DNA of 49,836 nucleotides from a virus (IMGVR_UViG_2563366803_000005:1-49836); one strand, 5' to 3'. Numbered from the stretch's first letter, positions 1,419-48,790 are shown. Program-made: numbers and translations. The notes: generated by a model from the letters alone, not told the origin.

Positions 1419-3857
1419 TTAAAAATCAGCCTGACTCGGGATCAGTTTTTGCCAGATAACTGAAACGTATTTTGCCTGGTAACGGGCGTCATCAAGTGCA
1501 TTATGGCGCTCACCTTCGAATGGAATAGCCGTTCTGGCATCGAAGTCTATGGCTTTCCCCAGCTCAACGATTGTGCGTACATCTCGATCGTTGTAGTAAC
1601 GCCACGGGCAGGGGATCCCCTGCCGTTCGTATGAACGGCGCAAAATCGTGTTGTCGAAGTTGGCTCCATTTCCCCAGACCTGAACAAAAAATTCACCGGA
1701 GTTTTCGTCGATAAATTCCCGCAATTGTAACAGTGCATCATCTAACGGGATTTCATCGGTCATAATGGCAGATTGCGCTTCGCGTGATTGCTTAAGCCAC
1801 CATTTAATGGTGTCCCGATCAATGACCCCGCCAGCAGTTTCCAGATCGATAGTCTTACTAAATTCCGGTCCCATATCTCCGGTTTGCGGATCGAAAAATA
1901 TTGCACCTATTGAGATGATCGGGGCATCAGGATTTTTTCCCATGGTTTCAAGGTCGATCATTAGATGGTCACACGTCCTGCTGGTGGATGTGATAACGTG
2001 ATGACCGTTCACCGTAATTAAGGGATCTGCCGTCTCGCCAGTTTCACTATCGCTGGCGTGATCCTGAGCGCTGCCAGCATTCTCCTTGTGTGGATGTTCA
2101 GCGCCTTCCATTTCCTTCGGATCATTTTCCTGAACTTCAACCTGATTCTCTTCATCGAATGTTTCCTGGTATGTTGCGTCGCCCATCACCGCGCCACAAT
2201 CAGGGCAGTTGCCGCCGCCGGTCTGACCGCAGGCTGTGCAGATCTTTTCCGGTTCCTGTTGCACTACTGGTTCAGGTTGTTTCGTTTCTGGCTCGTTTTG
2301 TAACGCATTTGGGCTGTTTTGTTCCGCTTTCTGGTCGTTCTGTTCCGATTCTTGCTGGTTCTGGTTTACAGAATCGCGGGTTTCAATCCCCTTTACCCAT
2401 TTCGGATCATTCGGGTCGCTAATCCCTGCAACAAATTCTCCGCGAGAGGCAGCAAGCAACTTATCGGCGTCAGGCTGGCTGATATTGGCTGCCTGCATAA
2501 TTTTGTTTACTTCGTCAGCGGTAACTTTTACCTGTGACTTGTCATCCAGCGGCTGCGGGTCCTGATGATGTTCAACTGTATCCGCTGCCATTGTTTCAGC
2601 CGTTGCCTGTTCATCTGCCATTGCGCCAGATGGTTGCGGGTTATCTTCATCATTTTTTTCTTCTTCTGTTTTGCACTCAGCAGCCAGTCCGCCGTTAATT
2701 TCTTCCAGGATATCTTTTTCCGGTGTATGCCGGGCAGCCATGAGCGTTTCAGCTGTGGGATTCTCGTGATCAGTTTCTGTCAGGTTGGCATTGATATACC
2801 CCTGAAGGCGCCCCGGGTAGTGATAAAACTCAGGGTGGGCGCTTCGGATAAGTGCAAAAATAGCTGCGCGGGAATAGTCCAGGATACCAGGGGTTGCGCG
2901 AAGTGCTGCGGACCATTCCCTGAACGGACTTTCTTTTTTCAGGACGATTTCTTTTGCGCGACGATAAACGCTGCCCGGAATTTCATAAATATTAAAATCC
3001 ATCGGAAGTGTGGCTGCTGCAATCTCCACATCCAGCGCATCGAAGGTGTGTACTAAATTCGGATTGCGATCGGTTTTGTTCCCGCCACCGGCATTTGCAC
3101 CGGAAGCCGTACGGGTGATACGCGAAACACGATTTCCTTTCATCCACTCTTTTGTCAGCAGACCCCGATCAGTGTAATCAGCGTCCAGGTATGCCTCGAA
3201 AAAAGCAGTTATCAGTCCCAGGTCTGAATTACCGGGATTAGGGAAAACTTTGTCAGTGTCGCGTACCAGTTTGTGAAGGTCGCGAATCTCCAGCGGGTCG
3301 AGCAGCTTTGTTTTGTGAGAAATGGCCAGGGCAGTAACAGCCGGCAGTTCTTCCGCCCGTGCTATATGTAATGCCTGAAGTTCTTCCCGTGCAACGTGCG
3401 TTACTGGTTTTTCGCTGCTGTGTTGCGCAAGCCAGCGAATGGGCAGCTCCTGACCAGAAACCGGCAGGAGCATATTCTCCTCAATCTCCGTCATGTCTTC
3501 GCCGTTGACGTTGGTATTGTCAGTACTGGCTGGTTTCTCCTGCACGGAGGGAGAGGGCGCGATAAATACCATTGTAATGCCATCTTCCCCGCCTTTTTCG
3601 TATCGGTTGCAGAATTCGGTATCAAACACGCCTTCAGGTGGAAGGTCATTCACAACGGGTAAATGGACGCGAACGGGTTTTTTAAAGTCGTCTTCATCAT
3701 AATCGTTGTCATCCATTGCGGTAATGCAGCGGGAGATGGCAACAGATAATTTTTTTGCTGTAGTCCAGTAAAAACCACCTTTAATTCCCAGACGTTTTCT
3801 GACTTTGTCATTTTTTGCTTCGCAATATAGCGCAAATTCTTCTTTATCAGTGCTCAT
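1419..3857 (-). CDS. Large phage exonuclease with C-terminal DnaQ-like (DEDDh) 3'-5' exonuclease domain
   Basis: 812 aa. C-terminal about 180 aa has DEDDh motifs (…MIDLETMG…, …[13 protein letters not shown]…, …[10 protein letters not shown]…). Middle is an acidic Q/E-rich low-complexity segment with a CxxC-x7-CxxC zinc ribbon ([16 protein letters not shown]). N-terminal domain unassigned. Confidence 0.75.
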
Positions 3858-3949
3858 TGATAAACCTCATTACAGATTTAAGGGTGAACAAATCCCTGCC
3901 ATTGCTGGCATTTTTAATCCGTTGGTATGGTGTTAATATGGCTGGAGGG

Positions 3950-4138
3950 TTATCCAGCCGGTGTTTCGTTATTCAGGTACAGCGATACTTTTTTTACCGG
4001 GAGGCATTCACCAGAAATTTTTTGCTCGTCTCTTGCCTGGAGGCAGGATTCTTTACTGGCATAAATTCCGGTAATCACATTCTGTGATTCACCCGTTATA
4101 AGAAAAACCGTCATCATCAGTGCAAATGCTGAAGTCAT
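3950..4138 (-). CDS. Hypothetical small protein with hydrophobic N-terminus (moron)
   Basis: 62 aa; start overlaps stop of the upstream ORF (ATGA at 4135-4138). N-terminal hydrophobic stretch (TSAFALMMTVFLITG), two Cys. AT-rich region. Confidence 0.35.
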   Translation of the reverse strand: MTSAFALMMTVFLITGESQNVITGIYASKESCLQARDEQKISGECLPVKKVSLYLNNETPAG

Positions 4139-4323: not shown

Positions 4324-4898
4324 TATCGCGTCCTCAACAATGAATTTTGTGATGCAGTGCCTGGTGCCTCCAGGTGACGTTAACCAGTTAACAATTAACG
4401 CCGGGTTAGTTGATGCTCGTTACGCCAGTAAAAGACCGCCTTACTGCTTTAACTGTTCCGCGTGCGCTCAGCCGCATTCACCGCATCACAAAATTCACTT
4501 TAAAAAGGGCGGCAGAGCAGTCACGGAGTAAAACTGATACCGCCAAACGTCACCAGAAAATTGATAACAGAGGGCGTTGCAGCGGGGTTGTCACTTAAGC
4601 GTATGGTCAACCTGACAACCCGGTGTCCTCAACGGGGGAAGGAATAACCCCGCCATATTTACCGCCGCGCCATTTCGCGGATTGCCACAACCGGAAGCGC
4701 ACGGTCGACGAAAATTTAACGACAGGCTATCTATGAACCAGCTACCTCGCCGTACGCTTTCGCGTTATGGTCTGACTTTTCAGGGAAATATCCTTTCAGT
4801 AAACTGTCAGTGCCGGATTCTTATCCGTGTCCGGCGCACGACCACACGCTGTCACGAGAGGTCTCCATTCTCAACCAGTAACCTCAATGGAGGATAAA

Positions 4899-5430: not shown

Positions 5431-5670
5431 TCAGTCAGTGTTTCTTGCTAACCAGCGATGCGCACCAGCTGCGGTTTTAAACGTTTTACTTTTGGTATAC
5501 GTCATCGCGGTGAAGGTGCCGTCCTGGTTAGGGAACACACCGCATACCAGAGATTCGTTGTTGCCAAGATTGAGCGTATCCATGTTGACCTCATTTCCCC
5601 TTAACGCCGGGGTAGCGGAACAAAAAACCTGCTGCGCTGTTATACAAAGTGTTCCCGCCGTCATGTTCAT
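5431..5670 (-). CDS. Hypothetical protein, first ORF downstream of the candidate leftward promoter
   Basis: 79-aa ORF at the position lambda N occupies relative to pL. No arginine-rich motif recognised; coding status uncertain. Confidence 0.25.
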   Translation of the reverse strand: MNMTAGTLCITAQQVFCSATPALRGNEVNMDTLNLGNNESLVCGVFPNQDGTFTAMTYTKSKTFKTAAGAHRWLARNTD

Positions 5671-5761
5671 ACGCCTCGGGCTGGCTACTTAACCCCTGAC
5701 CACTGCCGGGTAACTCGAAGTATTTCCCTGCGTTCTGTGGGGCGGGGTGGGTTGGTATTTT

Positions 5762-5789
5762 AGTTTAATAAACATTAAACTTAAGTCAA
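5762..5789 (-). promoter_or_regulatory. Candidate leftward early promoter (pL-like)
   Basis: On the minus strand: TTGACT (plus 5784-5789), 16-nt spacer, TAAACT (plus 5762-5767). Flanked by CATTAAAC / AACTAAAC motifs resembling the CACTAAAC repeats at 6759-6824. Confidence 0.3.
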
Positions 5790-13105: not shown

Positions 13106-13363
13106 ATACAGCGAACGCCATTGGTTTAGTTGGATATTTACTGTGCCGGACAAAAACGGTTTGCGGGGAAATCTTAGTTAAGTAGAATGACTGCGGGTGC
13201 TTGAGGCTATCTGTCTCAGGCATGAACACCAAAAGGCAGATAGAGAAAAGCCCCAGTTAACATTACGCGTCCTGCAAGACGCTTAACATTAATCTGAGGC
13301 CATATCTATGCGACACATAGAGATTAGCCTCTTACGGACCGAAAGGTCAAGGAGAAGCAGGCT

Positions 13364-13519
13364 ATGAAGCAGCAAAAGGCGATGTTAATCGCCCTGATCG
13401 TCATCTGTTTAACCGTCATAATGACGGCACTGGTAACGAGGAAAGACCTCTGCGAGGTACGAATCCGAACCGGCCAGACGGAGGTCACTGTCTTCACAGC
13501 TTACGAACCTGAGGAGTAA
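13364..13519 (+). CDS. hok: Hok/Gef-family type I toxin
   Basis: 51 aa (MKQQKAMLIALIVICLTVIMTALVTRKDLCEVRIRTGQTEVTVFTAYEPEE); Hok pattern with one TM helix and LTRK-x-LCE-x-R motif. A 19-codon upstream ORF (13308-13367) ends in ATGA overlapping the hok start. Confidence 0.8.
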   Translation: MKQQKAMLIALIVICLTVIMTALVTRKDLCEVRIRTGQTEVTVFTAYEPEE

Positions 13520-15027: not shown

Positions 15028-15387
15028 ATGCTCATAGATTTGGTTTTACCTTACCCGCCGACGGTGAACACTTACTGGCGACGCCGTGGCAGCACATATT
15101 TTATCTCGGAGGAGGGAAAGCGTTATCGCCGGGCTGTGGCGCTTATTGTTCGCCAGCAGCGGCTGAAATTAAGCCTGTCCGGAAGGCTGGCGATAAAGGT
15201 GATTGCAGAGCCACCGGATAAGCGTCGTCGCGACCTGGACAATATCCTGAAAGCACCGCTGGATGCGCTGACGCATGCGGGAGTGTTAATGGACGATGAG
15301 CAGTTTGATGAAATCAATATTGTAGGTGGTCAGCCAGTATCTGGTGGACGGCTGGGTGTGAAGATTTACAAAATTGAGAGTGAGTGA
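15028..15387 (+). CDS. rusA: Holliday-junction resolvase RusA
   Basis: 119 aa with RusA signature (…PPDKRRRDLDNILKAPLDALTHAGVLMDD…). Confidence 0.85.
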   Translation: MLIDLVLPYPPTVNTYWRRRGSTYFISEEGKRYRRAVALIVRQQRLKLSLSGRLAIKVIAEPPDKRRRDLDNILKAPLDALTHAGVLMDDEQFDEINIVGGQPVSGGRLGVKIYKIESE

Positions 15388-15950
15388 GCGTAAATATGAT
15401 ATATCCGGAAATTACAGGCAAAAGCGGCGAGCATTTACGTCTAAAAACGCTGGAAGCAGTCTGGATCCAGGGGAAATTACGGATGTGGGGGCGGTGGTCG
15501 TATATTGGCGGCGGTAAGACGGGAAATATGTTCAACCAATTACTGACCTCTAAAAAGCTGACAAAAACGGCAATTAACGAGGCGCTCCGGAGGATGAAAA
15601 AAGCTGGTCTGGACAAACCTGAACTTGAGGCTTTTTTGCGGGATATGATCAACGGCAATCAAAAAAGCTGGCTGGCACATTGTACCGATTCAGAGGCGTT
15701 AATAATCGACAGGGTTATTGGTGAAGTCCTGGCAGGCTATCCCGGGCTGCTCAATGTCCTGAGTCAGCGTTATGTGGGGCGGGGGATGACTAAGCGCAAA
15801 ATGGCTGAACTGCTGAATGATGCACACCCGGAATGGAGTTTAAGAACCTGTGAAAGACGCATTGAGCATTGGCTAAAGGTGGCAGAATTTATTTTGTACA
15901 AACCAATGGTTATGGCTTTTGGTATAGAGAAAAAAGTTATTGCTTTTTGA
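15384..15950 (+). CDS. Putative late-gene antiterminator (Q-like, called by position)
   Basis: 188 aa directly after rusA and followed about 80 bp downstream by a strong terminator; start could be GTG 15384 or ATG 15396. Family not confirmed by motif. Confidence 0.5.
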   Translation: MSVNMIYPEITGKSGEHLRLKTLEAVWIQGKLRMWGRWSYIGGGKTGNMFNQLLTSKKLTKTAINEALRRMKKAGLDKPELEAFLRDMINGNQKSWLAHCTDSEALIIDRVIGEVLAGYPGLLNVLSQRYVGRGMTKRKMAELLNDAHPEWSLRTCERRIEHWLKVAEFILYKPMVMAFGIEKKVIAF

Positions 15951-16026
15951 CGTAAAAACTGCTTCAATTCCGGTACGCTTCGCAAAGCTGTACCACGAGG
16001 CGAATAGCAGACATGGACATTTGAAA

Positions 16027-16052
16027 GAGCCCGCTTTTTGCGGGTTTTTTTA
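16027..16052 (+). terminator. tR'-like rho-independent terminator downstream of the Q-like gene
   Basis: CCCGC-TTTTT-GCGGG hairpin (16030-16044) followed by T7. Confidence 0.6.
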
Positions 16053-16174
16053 TGCCTGAAAAACGGCACAGAACATTAAACGCGCTGGTGGTTGCGAATA
16101 CCGGTCTTTCAGCTTGCTGGCTTTTCCGACAAGAGTTATTGGTATGTTACGTTAACCAGAAAAGGGAAAAAGAC

Positions 16175-16372
16175 ATGCTAAAACAGCAGGATATGACCGA
16201 AACCGCCAGAGTGGTGTTTAATGAGTTAAGCGTCACCGAACCGGCGACAGTCGGGGAGATTGCACAGAATACTTACCTTTCACGCGAACGCTGCCAGTTA
16301 ATACTGACCCAGCTTGTTATGGCGGGTCTGGCAGACTATCAGTTTGGTTGTTACAGACACCTTCAGTCCTGA
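16175..16372 (+). CDS. Hypothetical small protein
   Basis: 65 aa from ATG 16175 (MLKQQDMTETARVVFNELSVTEPATVGEIAQ…); its stop codon lies inside a terminator hairpin. Confidence 0.4.
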   Translation: MLKQQDMTETARVVFNELSVTEPATVGEIAQNTYLSRERCQLILTQLVMAGLADYQFGCYRHLQS

Positions 16373-16385
16373 AGGCTTTTTTATT
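16360..16385 (+). terminator. Rho-independent terminator
   Basis: CCTTCA-GTCC-TGAAGG followed by CTTTTTTATTT. Confidence 0.5.
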
Positions 16386-16756
16386 TGTGGTAAATGGGCG
16401 GCTGGTGGGTGTGGTGGTTGTTGCTTTCCCGTTGCTGAAAAAGAAAACGCCAGACTGTTAGCCGGGTATCAGTTATCTGGAGAAATTTTTAAATACCTCA
16501 CAATTCAGGCGGTTGACTGTTGTCTGGTTTGCGGGGAGTTTGTTAAAAGAAACTGGTATGGTGAATCCCCCTGTGCGGAGGGGCAATCAGCAACTGGTGT
16601 TTTGTCACCGACCCTTATCCTTTCTGTGCGGGTTCAGGTGCTGATACTGAACTCACCGGGAGGCACCCGGCATCATGCAATGGCACATAGCGCCACTCTC
16701 CAGCCCCTCTCCGGAGGGGCTGTTTATATTGATTTTGTCAGATGTGAGTAAACTCC

Positions 16757-17092
16757 TTATGGACTTTGTTGTTTTAGTCCATAAGGACATATTTGCAGAG
16801 TGCAACGGTTATTAAAGCATTCATTCAATACGTTATCTGTATTTGTAGGACATTCCTGGCTGTTTTTGATTAAATTCCAGAATGTTTTATTGAATGGTAC
16901 TACGTTGTAAATGGTTAAAGGTAGCACTTTGTTATTGAGCATGATACCTGTGTGAGTCAGTGTAAATATACTTTCAGGAGGTAAGAAAGCATCCGATTGA
17001 TACCAGATTATTAATTTTATTTTACTCCATATGACTGAAAAAGATATTCCGCATGATGGCTGGATAACTGTATCAATCACAATCCACTTCAT
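16757..17092 (-). CDS. AT-rich antisense moron, hypothetical Cys-containing protein
   Basis: 111 aa; AAGGAAA RBS before ATG 17092. Markedly AT-rich. A perfect 11-bp inverted repeat (16755-16786, CCTTATGGACT…AGTCCATAAGG) spans its stop codon. Confidence 0.45.
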
Positions 17093-17337
17093 TTAGTTTC
17101 CTTGTTTATGTCTTGCTGGTGATGTTCTGAAAAGTATAAATGATATTTTTGAATGTAAACCATAGAGCAGAATTATTTTTCTGATGTTGTTTATTGTTTA
17201 TTTAAATGCAGGGTGGTTTATATCTCGTCTTGTAGTTTATCCATGCATATCTGCTTGATGATGAGGTTTTTATTTAAGGTATGGTTTTGTGTTTTTTCTG
17301 TATTACATGTCAGGTATTTTAAAGAATTATTTTTCAG

Positions 17338-19314
17338 ATGGTGGAAAGAACCATGGCATTTAAACACTATGATGTTGTCAGGGCGGCATCGCCGTCAGAC
17401 CTTGCGAAACGACTGACACAAAAACTGAAGGAGGGGTGGCAGCCATTTGGCAGTCCGGTGGCCATCACGCCTTATACCCTGATGCAGGCCATTGCGGCGG
17501 AAGGTGATGTCACCACACCTGTGGTGGTGAAGCCGTCGGATGGAGAAGGCGCAGTTATCAGCACCACCAGCAACCCGGAGTATTACTTTGTTGTTGCCCT
17601 GGCCGGGCAGTCAAACGGTATGGCGTATGGTGAAGGGCTTCCGCTGCCGGAGACATATGACCGTCCGGACCCGCGTATTAAACAGCTGGCGCGTCGCAGC
17701 ACTGTCACGCCGGGTGGTGCGTCCTGTAACTACAATGACATTATTCCTGCGGACCACTGCCTGCATGATGTTCAGGATTTGAGTAAGTTTTCACACCCGA
17801 AAGCCAGCGCAGCTCAGTATGGATGCGTGGGGCAGGGATTACATATCGCGAAGAAATTGTTGCCGTTTATTCCGGCGAATGCCGGTATTCTTCTGGTTCC
17901 GTGCTGCCGTGGTGGTTCTGCATTTTTGGCGGGCGATGAAGGTACCTTCAGCGAATCCACCGGCGCAAGCGAGACCTCGGCACGCTGGGGTGTTGATAAG
18001 CCACTGTACAAGGACCTGCTTACCCGTACTCAGGCCGCACTGAAGGCCAACCCTAAAAATATTCTGCTTGCAGTGGTCTGGATGCAGGGCGAGTTTGATT
18101 TGAAACAGGGTGCATACGCCACTCAGCCGGGGCTGTTTGATTCCATGGTGGAAAAATATCGTTCTGACCTGTCGGAATTCGGAGGTCAGTGTCTCGGGGG
18201 CTCTCCGTCATCGGTTCCCTGGATTTGTGGCGACACGACCTACTACTGGAAGCAGACTTATTCTTCGCAATACGATGCGGTGTATGGTGCATACAAGACG
18301 AAATCCGCAAAAAAAATCTTCTTTGTGCCGTTTATGACGGATGAAAACGGGCGAAATGTGGGTACCAACGAGCCGTCAGAAGATCCGGATGTTGCGGATG
18401 TTGGGTATTACGGAGCCGGTGGTCGAACGGACGCCAAAACCTGGACGACGGCCGACCGTAAAACGCATTTTGGATCATGGGCACGTCGTGGGATTATTTC
18501 CGACCGTCTGGCAACGGCGATTCTTGTGCATGCCGGGAGAAACGCTGAATTCATTACCGGAAAACAGCCTGATACGGTGAAGCCCACCGGACCTTCCGGT
18601 GAAGGTACGGAGAGAGAGCCGGAAGCCCCGGTCAGTAACCGAACCCTGATGAGTCTGCTGGCGTCCGGCGAAGACCTGGCATCACAGGGCTGGCGCTATT
18701 ATCACAAACCGGCGAGCGGAGACAATGTTAACAAAAACATTGCTGAAGCGGTGGTCAGTGATGCGGGGGCTACGGGAGGTAAGGCCCTGCAACTGAATAA
18801 ACCGGAAAACCACATCTGGTTTCTGGAGCATGATGCAGCCGGACAGGGAGTGGAGTTACTGAAGAAGGGGGGACGTGTGAGCGTACGGTTTAAGTTGCCG
18901 GGTTCACTGGTGCCGAATCAGTTTGCCCTGGGCATTTACTGGCAGTTGTCGTCCCTGCCGGAGGGAGTGACGCTGGCAGAGGAAGGCAACGACATGCTGA
19001 TGTCCTTCTTCCTGCAGACGGATGCGACGAACCTGAACGCGATGCACCACAAGAAGCCGAATGCGAAGCTGGATACGTTCGGGGTCTTTGATAACGGATG
19101 GCACACACTGGCTTTTGAGTTTGCCGGAAACAACAGCATTCAGGTGACGCCGGTACTGGATGAGAAACGGGGGACGCCGTTCACACTGGTGAAATCTCCG
19201 GCATCAGGGGCGGCGGACAAACTGCAACTGACAGGCATATCAAAGGCGGCGACATATACGCTGCTGATTGACAGTGTGAAGGTGGAAGTGAACAACGCGG
19301 ACATCGCGGCATGA
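17338..19314 (+). CDS. nanS: Prophage sialate O-acetylesterase (NanS-p-like, SGNH/SASA domain) with C-terminal extension
   Basis: 658 aa (alternative start ATG 17353). GQSN motif (…VALAGQSNGMAYGEG…); C-terminal about 250 aa is beta-rich. Occupies the position downstream of Q where such esterases sit in Stx-type prophages. Confidence 0.75.
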   Translation: MVERTMAFKHYDVVRAASPSDLAKRLTQKLKEGWQPFGSPVAITPYTLMQAIAAEGDVTTPVVVKPSDGEGAVISTTSNPEYYFVVALAGQSNGMAYGEGLPLPETYDRPDPRIKQLARRSTVTPGGASCNYNDIIPADHCLHDVQDLSKFSHPKASAAQYGCVGQGLHIAKKLLPFIPANAGILLVPCCRGGSAFLAGDEGTFSESTGASETSARWGVDKPLYKDLLTRTQAALKANPKNILLAVVWMQGEFDLKQGAYATQPGLFDSMVEKYRSDLSEFGGQCLGGSPSSVPWICGDTTYYWKQTYSSQYDAVYGAYKTKSAKKIFFVPFMTDENGRNVGTNEPSEDPDVADVGYYGAGGRTDAKTWTTADRKTHFGSWARRGIISDRLATAILVHAGRNAEFITGKQPDTVKPTGPSGEGTEREPEAPVSNRTLMSLLASGEDLASQGWRYYHKPASGDNVNKNIAEAVVSDAGATGGKALQLNKPENHIWFLEHDAAGQGVELLKKGGRVSVRFKLPGSLVPNQFALGIYWQLSSLPEGVTLAEEGNDMLMSFFLQTDATNLNAMHHKKPNAKLDTFGVFDNGWHTLAFEFAGNNSIQVTPVLDEKRGTPFTLVKSPASGAADKLQLTGISKAATYTLLIDSVKVEVNNADIAA

Positions 19315-20208: not shown

Positions 20209-20212
20209 AGTG

Positions 20213-21103
20213 ATGAATAAAAAATATGAACTGGTTGTTAAGGGGATAAATAATTACGGGGATAAGGTTACTGTTACTGTGAAGCCGGAAGGTGACGGGC
20301 AAGCGTCGCTGTTGTTGCCAGATGTGGCGATTAGTCTTGACCGTACTGAAGGTGCCACGCTGGAGTTTTACGAAGCTGAGGCGAAAAAGCAGGCGAAGCA
20401 GTTTTTCATGGATGTTGCTGCCGGGTTATGTGAATGGAACGAACCGTTGCCGGAAAAGCGCCCCGTAATTTTAGAGGCGCAGGATGTGTTGATAACCTAC
20501 AAAGGAAAGCTACCGGGAAGAATTACTTGTTCTCTGAAGATGCCGCCGTCAACACTGCGGTCAGAAAAAGATGATGTTGAATCACGTATTGAAAAACTGG
20601 AGAGCTACGTCGTTGAGCTGAATAAGAAATGGTCGATATTGGTGCCTTCTGGCGATGAAAAGCAGTTTGCTGCGTTTGACGATTATTGTCGGAAAGTGAT
20701 GAGCAGAAATCTCGCAGAGTGTTTCAGTATTCATAATGATAATTTCAGTGACCCGGAATGGGAGTGTAACCGGCCATCCTTTGTTGTATCCGGTGATGCT
20801 GGGAAAATAACCATCTCAGAAAATGGGAAAGTAACACCTCCATCGCACCAGCACAGTGAGGAGCTCATTGAATTTGCCATTGATTACCTGAAGAACAATA
20901 AAAAGCAGGGGCTGATGAAGCGCGTTGGCCGTTGCATGGGATATCTTCAGGTAGCCGCTGAGATTGAAGCGCTGGCCAGTGGTGCTGATAAGGATGCAAT
21001 TGTGCGGGAGGCTCTTCTTCGTGATTTTAATACTCCACCCTTTAAAAAAGTGCCGGCTTACTGGCTTCATCCGGGGCTGACTTATCTTAAAGTGCGTATT
21101 TAG
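20213..21103 (+). CDS. Uncharacterised 296-aa protein inserted between holin and endolysin
   Basis: ATG 20213 (GTG 20210) five nt after the holin stop; RBS GGGGAGAG. No TM segment or catalytic motif recognised. Confidence 0.6.
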   Translation: MNKKYELVVKGINNYGDKVTVTVKPEGDGQASLLLPDVAISLDRTEGATLEFYEAEAKKQAKQFFMDVAAGLCEWNEPLPEKRPVILEAQDVLITYKGKLPGRITCSLKMPPSTLRSEKDDVESRIEKLESYVVELNKKWSILVPSGDEKQFAAFDDYCRKVMSRNLAECFSIHNDNFSDPEWECNRPSFVVSGDAGKITISENGKVTPPSHQHSEELIEFAIDYLKNNKKQGLMKRVGRCMGYLQVAAEIEALASGADKDAIVREALLRDFNTPPFKKVPAYWLHPGLTYLKVRI

Positions 21104-44442: not shown

Positions 44443-44476
44443 AAGCCCGTGGCGTCACTGCTGCGGGCTTTTTTGT
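44443..44476 (+). terminator. Rho-independent terminator after lom
   Basis: AGCCCG-loop-CGGGCT followed by T6. Confidence 0.55.
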
Positions 44477-44477
44477 G

Positions 44478-45185
44478 CACAGAAAACCCCCAGCTAGGCT
44501 GGGGGTTCCGGAAAGCTTTCAGCTTTAAGCCAGTTATTAAAACCCCTTTTGATTTGTTAAAACACCTTGCGGTCTGGCAACTGCAAGTGTCAAACAAGAA
44601 ATCAAAAGGGGGTCCCAATGGGGAACGAAAAGAGCTTAGCGCACACCCGATGGAACTGTAAATATCACATAGTTTTTGCGCCAAAATACCGAAGACAGGT
44701 GTTCTACAGAGAGAAGCGTAGAGCAATAGGCAGTATTTTGAGAAAGCTGTGTGAGTGGAAAAGTGTACGGATTCTGGAAGCTGAATGCTGTGCAGATCAT
44801 ATCCATATGCTTGTGGAGATCCCGCCCAAAATGAGCGTATCCGGCTTTATGGGATATCTGAAAGGGAAAAGCAGTCTGATGCTTTACGAGCAGTTTGGTG
44901 ATTTGAAATTCAAATACAGGAACAGGGAGTTCTGGTGCAGAGGGTACTACGTCGATACGGTGGGTAAGAACACGGCGAAGATACAGGATTACATAAAGCA
45001 CCAGCTTGAAGAGGATAAAATGGGAGAGCAGTTATCGATTCCCTATCCGGGCAGCCCGTTTACGGGCCGTAAGTAACGAAGTTGGATGCAAATGTCAGAT
45101 CGTGTGCGCCTGTTAGGGCGCGGCTGGTAAGAGAGCCTTATAGGCGCATTTGAAAAACCTCCGGCTATGCCGGAGGATATTTATT
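44478..45185 (+). mobile_element. IS200-family insertion sequence (about 0.7 kb, boundaries approximate)
   Basis: Single tnpA gene flanked by terminal hairpins: left CCCCCAGC-TAG-GCTGGGGG (44487-44505), right CCTCCGG-CTATG-CCGGAGG (45158-45176). Lies between lom and stf. Confidence 0.6.
44618..45076 (+). CDS. tnpA: IS200/IS605-family transposase TnpA (Y1 HUH)
   Basis: 152 aa (MGNEKSLAHTRWNCKYHIVFAPKYRR…HIHMLVEIPP…RNREFWCRGYYVDTVG…); HxH and catalytic Tyr motifs. Confidence 0.85.
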   Translation: MGNEKSLAHTRWNCKYHIVFAPKYRRQVFYREKRRAIGSILRKLCEWKSVRILEAECCADHIHMLVEIPPKMSVSGFMGYLKGKSSLMLYEQFGDLKFKYRNREFWCRGYYVDTVGKNTAKIQDYIKHQLEEDKMGEQLSIPYPGSPFTGRK

Positions 45186-48206: not shown

Positions 48207-48790
48207 TGGCATTCAGAATGAGTGAACAAGCACGGACCATAAAAATTTATAATCTGCTGGCCGGAACTAATGAATTTATTGGTGAAGGTGACGCATATAT
48301 TCCGCCTCATACAGGTCTGCCAGCAAACAGTACCGATATTGCACCACCAGATATTCCTGCTGGCTTTGTGGCTGTTTTCAACAGTGATGAGGCATCGTGG
48401 CATCTCGTTGAAGACCATCGGGGTAAAACGGTTTATGACGTAGCGTCAGGGGACGAGTTATTTATTTCTGAACTCGGTCCGTTACCGGAAAATGTTACCT
48501 GGTTATCGCCGGAAGGGGAGTTTCAGAAGTGGAACGGCACAGCCTGGGTGAAGGATACGGAAGCAGAAAAACTGTTCCGGATCCGGGAGGCGGAAGAAAC
48601 AAAAAACAACCTGATGCAGGTAGCCAGTGAGCATATTGCGCCGCTTCAGGATGCTGCAGATCTGGAAATTGCAACGGAGGAAGAAACCTCATTGCTGGAA
48701 GCCTGGAAAAAGTATCGGGTGTTGCTGAACCGTGTTGATACATCAACTGCACCTGATATTGAGTGGCCTACGAACCCTGTCAGGGAGTAA
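48206..48790 (+). CDS. tfa: Tail fibre assembly protein (Tfa)
   Basis: 194 aa; ATG overlaps the stf stop; Tfa-like C-terminus (…[45 protein letters not shown]…). Confidence 0.85.

Follow-up and report, generated by a model that had tools for sequence, protein, structure and literature searches.

The window, that is, the whole stretch of 49,836 nucleotides analysed here (IMGVR_UViG_2563366803_000005), is a complete lambdoid prophage, integrated at potB/potC. Throughout its length it aligns, at 99.9% identity, with a lambdoid prophage located between potC and potB in Escherichia coli Ecol_745, the only exception being a 705-bp IS200 insertion (window 44475-45179). The 1.5 kb around the locus of interest (15951-17337) recur with 100% identity in a large number of E. 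coli chromosomes, among them those of ST131 strains and of Ecol_745, and are 99.9% identical to ATCC 25922. In RefSeq, this region is annotated, in order, as a DUF1133 protein, a hypothetical protein, (DUF3927), an "anti-adapter protein IraM" on the opposite strand and a SASA esterase. The features of the locus and its borders are the following:

15384-15950, plus strand: late antiterminator Q-like gene (DUF1133 / Q82-type; Pfam and PHROG), with the RefSeq start at 15396
about 16024-16052, plus strand: tR'-type intrinsic terminator, CCCGC/GCGGG stem with A/U pairs followed by 7 U (fold energy)
16175-16372, plus strand: orf65, which is the first ORF downstream of tR' and codes for a small protein of PHROG 331 with a putative three-helix, winged-helix-like fold
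16360-16385, plus strand: weak terminator-like hairpin (16360-16375) and T-tract, including the stop codon of orf65 (pattern scan)
16413-16497, plus strand: empty cargo slot of 85 nt, with the 3' remnant of a DUF3927 ORF (16387-16461) (blastn module boundaries, alignments)
16527-16731, plus strand: sRNA STnc100, partially overlapping with the EHEC RNA EcOnc27/sRNA103 (Rfam RF02076)
16722-17351, minus strand: iraL cassette, a mobile module of 630 bp with a GC content of 0.32 (comparison with PhiR5_1)
16754-16787, minus strand: perfect 12-bp hairpin at the 3' end of iraL (arms 16754-16765 and 16776-16787)
16757-17092, minus strand: iraL, coding for an RssB anti-adaptor of 111 aa of the IraM/IraL/RssC family (NCBIfam, identity to CFT073)
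17125-17159, minus strand: iraL promoter, with putative hexamers TTTACA (17159-17154) and TATACT (17138-17133), a 15-nt spacer and the transcription start site (TSS) at 17125 (homology to CFT073 5'RACE data)
17353-19314, plus strand: nanS-p type esterase gene (DUF1737, SASA and DUF6645 domains; Pfam and RefSeq annotation of the identical locus)

The product of the Q-like gene matches PF06576 (DUF1133) with 352 bits, PF06530 (Phage_antitermQ) with 32.6 bits, above the cutoff of 26, and PHROG 753, "anti-termination protein Q-like", with an E-value of 1.6e-80. It has no match in NCBIfam, and no papers were found in the literature on DUF1133 or under the RefSeq protein accessions of the locus. Downstream of this gene, the tR'-type terminator has a folding energy of -20.7 kcal/mol (z -4.26), and none of 200 shuffled sequences was equally stable. 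At the same site, the Stx2a phage EH2201 and PhiR5_1 have a hairpin of another sequence followed by the same T-tract. Because a consensus promoter scan of the plus strand, which missed tR' too, found no PR', the succession Q - PR' - tR' rests on the homology of Q and on the terminator. The presumed PR'-tR' leader (15977-16050) gave a sub-threshold match to isrK, the Gifsy-1 short leader RNA (18 bits against 50, E-value 0.4), at the site where Stx phages make StxS. This match was treated as chance and probably reflects mere terminator similarity.

In all cases orf65 is the first gene after tR', and in many Stx2a, 2d, 2e and 2k phages it is immediately upstream of the stx cassette. The first-pass annotation, which was made from the sequence alone, had described a 65-aa ORF whose stop codon lies in a terminator hairpin. 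The ORF was confirmed, as was the position of its TGA in the 3' arm of the hairpin at 16360-16375, but the hairpin itself is weak (-7.3 kcal/mol, not better than shuffled sequences); PhiR5_1 retains it with a changed loop. An extended frame of 106 aa starting at 16052 was rejected as the true orf65 because the homologues found across genera have 63-65 aa. PHROG 331, to which the protein was assigned, is labelled "unknown function", and NCBIfam gave no match. NCBI names its homologues TrmB family regulators (PF01978), a name that goes back to a sub-threshold match, the Pfam score being 18.0 bits for a cutoff of 25.6 (E-value 0.0027). Searching PDB profiles with the orf65 alignment returned noise alone (E-values of at least 0.15), and an exhaustive HMM search of 1.84 billion representatives recovered only 88 relatives, all of them small, and did not connect orf65 with any larger family. 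The AF2 model (pLDDT 74.6) has helices at residues 4-18, 26-33 and 37-49, and its top Foldseek matches are all wHTH proteins (OhrR, PefI, PcaR, CzrA and Zalpha, with TM scores of 0.5-0.67), none of them significant (E-values of at least 0.24). Our best guess, held with low confidence, is that orf65 encodes a small DNA-binding protein.

Further downstream, the STnc100 model (RF02076) matches over its full length (1-206) with a covariance score of 131.7 bits, the gathering score being 47. Two G/C hairpins that had been listed as separate features are both real, but they are parts of this RNA: the first, at 16568-16583, corresponds to one of the internal helices in the model, and the second, which lies with its T-tract at 16701-16722 and not at 16710-16745, is the STnc100 terminator. 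STnc100 was found at the corresponding position in 933W, phage 1717, Stx2_EH2201, PhiR5_1, phage 640R1 (two copies) and CFT073; in 933W, phage 1717 and EH2201 it follows stx2B, and in CFT073 it precedes iraL. According to a published report, Stx2 phages have it at a distance of 75 nt downstream of stx2, and EcOnc27/sRNA103 is known to be Hfq-bound, with Hfq-CRAC and Northern evidence for the Sakai/EDL933 copy. The 933W copy reaches 207.7 bits, against the lower score obtained here, where the central part is divergent. In comparison with the copies downstream of stx2B, the terminator and the distal position relative to the moron slot are the same, but the copy in the window stands behind an empty slot. 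In phage vB_EcoS-640R1, the two copies are arranged in tandem upstream of iraL (L002:5124-5317 and 5593-5781), about 275 nt apart. The consensus scan of the plus strand found no promoter for either STnc100 or orf65; both may be produced only by read-through or processing.

The boundaries of the modules were defined by comparison with the late regions of Stx prophages, which placed the limits of the cargo slot at 16412 and 16498. The segment 16040-16412, which comprises the T-tract of tR' and orf65 together with the terminator of the latter, shows 94% identity (blastn) with the leader between Q and the methylase gene in EH2201, and 92% with phiP27 (Stx2e). On the other side, the segment 16498-18540, with STnc100, the IraM-family gene and the esterase gene, is 72% identical to the stx2B-to-yjhS segment of EH2201 and to phage 1717. 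In the same slot, EH2201 (Stx2a) carries 2.8 kb comprising a DNA methylase gene, 3 tRNAs and stx2AB, while the window has 85 nt; the 24-aa DUF3927 remnant was recognized by Pfam with 32 bits. As first proposed, a cargo or moron region of the type of Stx-phage late regions is thus found between Q/tR' and the nanS-type esterase gene, and it contains neither stx nor tRNA genes: ARAGORN detected 0 tRNA in the window, and tblastx of stx2AB against the whole window gave 0 matches. With no stxA or stxB between Q and the lysis genes, the prophage does not qualify as Stx-converting. The suggestion that the other elements had come in place of stx did not hold, as in EH2201 they flank the toxin genes, orf65 being upstream of the methylase-tRNAs-stx2AB segment, and STnc100 and the iraM-family gene downstream of stx2B. 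In the window, the cargo slot lies between these elements and is empty; they are not its filling.

The comparison with PhiR5_1 was informative for the next module. This phage follows the window at 94% identity as far as 16721, and the match resumes at 17352; the interval is taken up by 233 unrelated nt, without iraL. The 630-bp iraL cassette (16722-17351) is therefore delimited. Its GC content of 0.32 compares with 0.51 for the whole window, and a drop to 0.29-0.37 is seen across 16700-17400. The 233 nt that PhiR5_1 has at this site (L009:4682-4914) resemble the AsxR region of 933W and contain, after an A-run on the plus strand, a GC hairpin that would be a minus-strand terminator; they are below the Rfam thresholds for AsxR and AgvB. 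The moron region is closed by a conserved ORF, the nanS-p type esterase gene. The region is best described as a moron site built of exchangeable modules, each of which is already known.

The gene on the opposite strand had been described as a 111-aa ORF (16757-17092) with its own RBS. This was confirmed (AAGGAA, 6-11 nt before the ATG), but its function, given at that time as unknown, could be named, as it is iraL, the gene described by Hryckowian et al. 2014 (PMC4045071). The protein matches the NCBIfam IraM profile NF007393 with 161.4 bits, above the cutoff of 121, its residues 1-110 covering profile positions 1-113/114, and it has no family in Pfam. The coding DNA is identical to CFT073 iraL (c1429, located at L007:15465-15800 and annotated "IraM") at 333 of 336 nt (99.1%) and the protein at 110 of 111 aa (99.1%), with L59V as the sole change. 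The upstream region is also conserved, with 253 of 260 nt identical (97%, at least 96% having been set for the promoter) and the -35/-10 stretch unchanged. Moreover, the published 5'RACE mRNA end of CFT073, ACATCACCAGCAAGGCATAAACAAGGAAACCA, maps to the minus strand with 2 mismatches and places the TSS at 17125, and the likely hexamers are TTTACA and TATACT with the 15-nt spacer.

An 11-bp inverted repeat with the stop codon inside it had been noted at 16755-16786. The repeat is indeed perfect and does contain the stop codon, but its arms measure 12 nt and it extends from 16754 to 16787. The 5' arm codes for PYGL and the 3' arm carries the stop codon. The hairpin folds at -17.5 kcal/mol (z -5.0; 0 of 200 shuffled sequences equally stable). 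Because the tract that follows, AGUUUACU, is a poor U-run, the hairpin probably stabilises the 3' end of the mRNA or terminates transcription weakly.

[quoted passage not shown] Later papers reported that the mRNA of CFT073 iraL (c1429) is up at 37 °C and that IraL is up in a fur mutant. The gene has the same layout in both prophages, STnc100 and iraL converging upstream of the DUF1737/esterase gene in a lambdoid prophage at potB. The upstream modules are different: CFT073 has a 273-aa Q, an IS200, three tRNAs and a full DUF3927 ORF, whereas the window has the DUF1133-type Q gene, orf65 and the empty slot. In addition, nanS is intact in the window and truncated in CFT073.

Taken together, these features make it very likely that the locus is the moron site of the potB/potC lambdoid prophage, in which the antisense gene is iraL and the hairpins belong to STnc100. 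Every element in 15951-17337 can be named and, because the antisense gene is iraL and the adjoining hairpins are a known phage sRNA, the locus is genuine, but it is ordinary and already known. In a lysogen, transcription from PR' would end at tR' (around 16024-16052). Past tR', the same strand carries orf65, the 85-nt empty slot and STnc100/EcOnc27, an sRNA of the Hfq type that has a terminator of its own; iraL, in its 630-bp AT-rich cassette, converges on this sRNA from the opposite strand. Having its own predicted sigma-70 promoter, with a TSS around 17125 as taken from the 99%-identical CFT073 gene, iraL would be expressed without Q and without prophage induction. We agree with the view of the AT-rich antisense gene as a moron that was acquired horizontally and has a transcription of its own. 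IraL would then occupy RssB's N-terminal domain, and RssB would thereby no longer deliver sigma-S to ClpXP; sigma-S would build up in exponential growth and the general stress regulon would go up, which would be a classical lysogenic conversion. After induction, Q-antiterminated late transcription would pass antisense across iraL. The identities, homologies and module boundaries used in this scheme come from the present analysis, while the TSS, RssB binding and sigma-S stabilisation are taken from the CFT073 literature.

The arrangement of STnc100 and iraL has known counterparts. Tree et al. 2014 (PMC4104026) described convergent sRNA genes at the moron site after PR', placed between the CDS of the moron and the conserved ORF that follows it, as exemplified by EcOnc27 and AsxR after stx2B. 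In 933W, STnc100 (plus strand, 3778-3983) abuts AsxR (minus strand, 3985-4037). As in the EcOnc27/AsxR and EcOnc06/AgvB pairs, a sense sRNA and an antisense partner are found here before the esterase ORF, but the partner is a 630-bp protein-coding cassette, whereas it is an anti-sRNA of 51-60 nt in those pairs. No match to AsxR or AgvB was obtained in the window at E-values up to 10. The substitution of the anti-sRNA partner of STnc100 by an iraL cassette was not found spelled out in the literature on moron-site layout; iraL as antisense partner is a small variation of a known layout. A more ambitious reading would see in these parts an undescribed working unit. The narrow orf65 family, of about 65 aa, could bind DNA and thereby regulate cargo or late expression, and iraL may take the place of the anti-sRNA partner, the late transcription colliding with iraL and silencing it. 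We regard such a unit as unlikely; if it were true, prophage induction would be coupled to the loss of sigma-S stabilisation.

The moron site could also be viewed as a decaying scar of an stx deletion, its ORFs being non-functional leftovers after the loss of the toxin genes. The slot 16413-16497 has just the truncated DUF3927 ORF, and its flanks are homologous to the stx2 flanks of Stx2a, Stx2c and Stx2e phages, as would be expected of a scar. However, neither orf65 nor iraL is disrupted, and both show purifying selection, with dN/dS values of 0.03-0.23, the range obtained for orf65 among four phage copies. Homologues of orf65 (n = 334; typical length 63-65 aa) are found at 78-98% identity in E. 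coli, Shigella, Salmonella, Klebsiella, Citrobacter and Buttiauxella, which indicates that it is a real, conserved gene. A gene of the iraM family is present in 4758 of 5426 complete E. coli genomes, and about 1,400 complete E. coli genome records have iraL at no less than 95% identity to the window allele. Furthermore, the 85-nt slot sequence is common to CFT073 and to PhiR5_1, a non-Stx phage, which points to a mosaic of modules and not to a recent stx deletion. A scar is thus very improbable, and both ORFs are conserved genes, as had been anticipated.

Another possibility is that the AT-rich cassette acts mainly in cis, as H-NS-bound DNA or as an antisense roadblock that would silence nanS and the lysis genes in the lysogen, the protein being secondary. 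The GC content of 0.30-0.34 over 630 bp between tR'/STnc100 and nanS and the orientation of the cassette, convergent with the transcription of the late operon, are consistent with this idea. So is the higher level of CFT073 iraL mRNA at 37 °C, as such a rise is typical for H-NS-silenced DNA. Against it, the strong purifying selection acts on the protein, the related phages PhiR5_1 and 933W do without the cassette, and the function of the protein has been demonstrated in CFT073 (PMC4045071). We consider it highly unlikely that the cassette is mainly a cis-acting element.

Finally, that the antisense gene would be a functional counterpart of iraM in K-12, with induction by PhoP/Mg2+ starvation and a product that binds the two RssB domains, is hardly credible in spite of the shared NCBIfam family, the RefSeq name "IraM" and the good alignment of the N-terminal 78 residues with PDB 8twd (an IraM fragment; E-value 1e-31), given that the protein is 62% identical to IraM versus 99% to IraL, that its promoter and the 260 bp upstream correspond to iraL and not to K-12 iraM, and that the conditions and RssB-binding mode of IraL were reported to be different (PMC4045071).

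The anti-adaptor IraL has known relatives. K-12 IraM (b1160) belongs to the same family, NF007393, and to the same length class, and the two proteins share the conserved cysteines C14, C81, C92, C97 and C102. K-12 iraM is also associated with a prophage, being located next to e14, but IraM is without the 4-residue QQSP tail and its gene without the 12-bp hairpin, and no STnc100 was found when it was looked for beside K-12 iraM. IraM and IraL were reported to differ in their conditions and regulation as well as in RssB binding (PMC4045071). The IraM-like genes of Stx2c and Stx2a phages (1717 gp43, 2851 and "iraM" of Stx2_EH2201) occupy the same antisense site between STnc100 and the esterase gene, but they are directly downstream of stx2B-STnc100, unlike the gene in the window. 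At the amino acid level, their products share 74-75% identity with IraL and 65% with K-12 IraM. The IraM-like proteins of Stx2c and of some Stx2a phages thus form a third clade of the IraM family. Members of this clade are located at L011:6003-6326 (phage 1717 gp43) and L012:5003-5326 (Stx2_EH2201 "iraM"), and no functional study of it was found in the literature on IraM, Shiga toxin prophages and RpoS. The location of this clade directly downstream of stx2B could tie toxin phages to RpoS control.

The main effect of this analysis is a correction of the annotation, the "unknown moron" being iraL and the hairpins STnc100. As iraL, the gene would be one reason why many extraintestinal E. coli keep RpoS high in log phase; ST131 and ATCC 25922-like strains are among the extraintestinal E. 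coli with the identical iraL locus. The comparison shows in addition that the elements which flank stx in Stx2 phages, with orf65 upstream and STnc100 and an IraM-family gene downstream, move as independent modules in non-toxigenic prophages.

Several other elements were observed in the window. The 705-bp IS200 copy (44475-45179) lies between a lom-like gene and a tail-fibre gene; it is 98.8% identical to IS200C of CFT073 and has an Rfam match to STnc490 at 44485-44608. Directly after the holin gene, a 297-aa ORF (20210-21103) has a DUF1327/YdfR domain in its first ~100 residues, while the remaining ~200 residues are without Pfam match; RefSeq annotates it as a partial YdfR pseudogene. The window also contains DicF RNA (4507-4558, minus strand), a sok/hokD toxin-antitoxin pair (13195-13519, plus strand) and, near its right end, IS009 RNA (48549-48747, plus strand).
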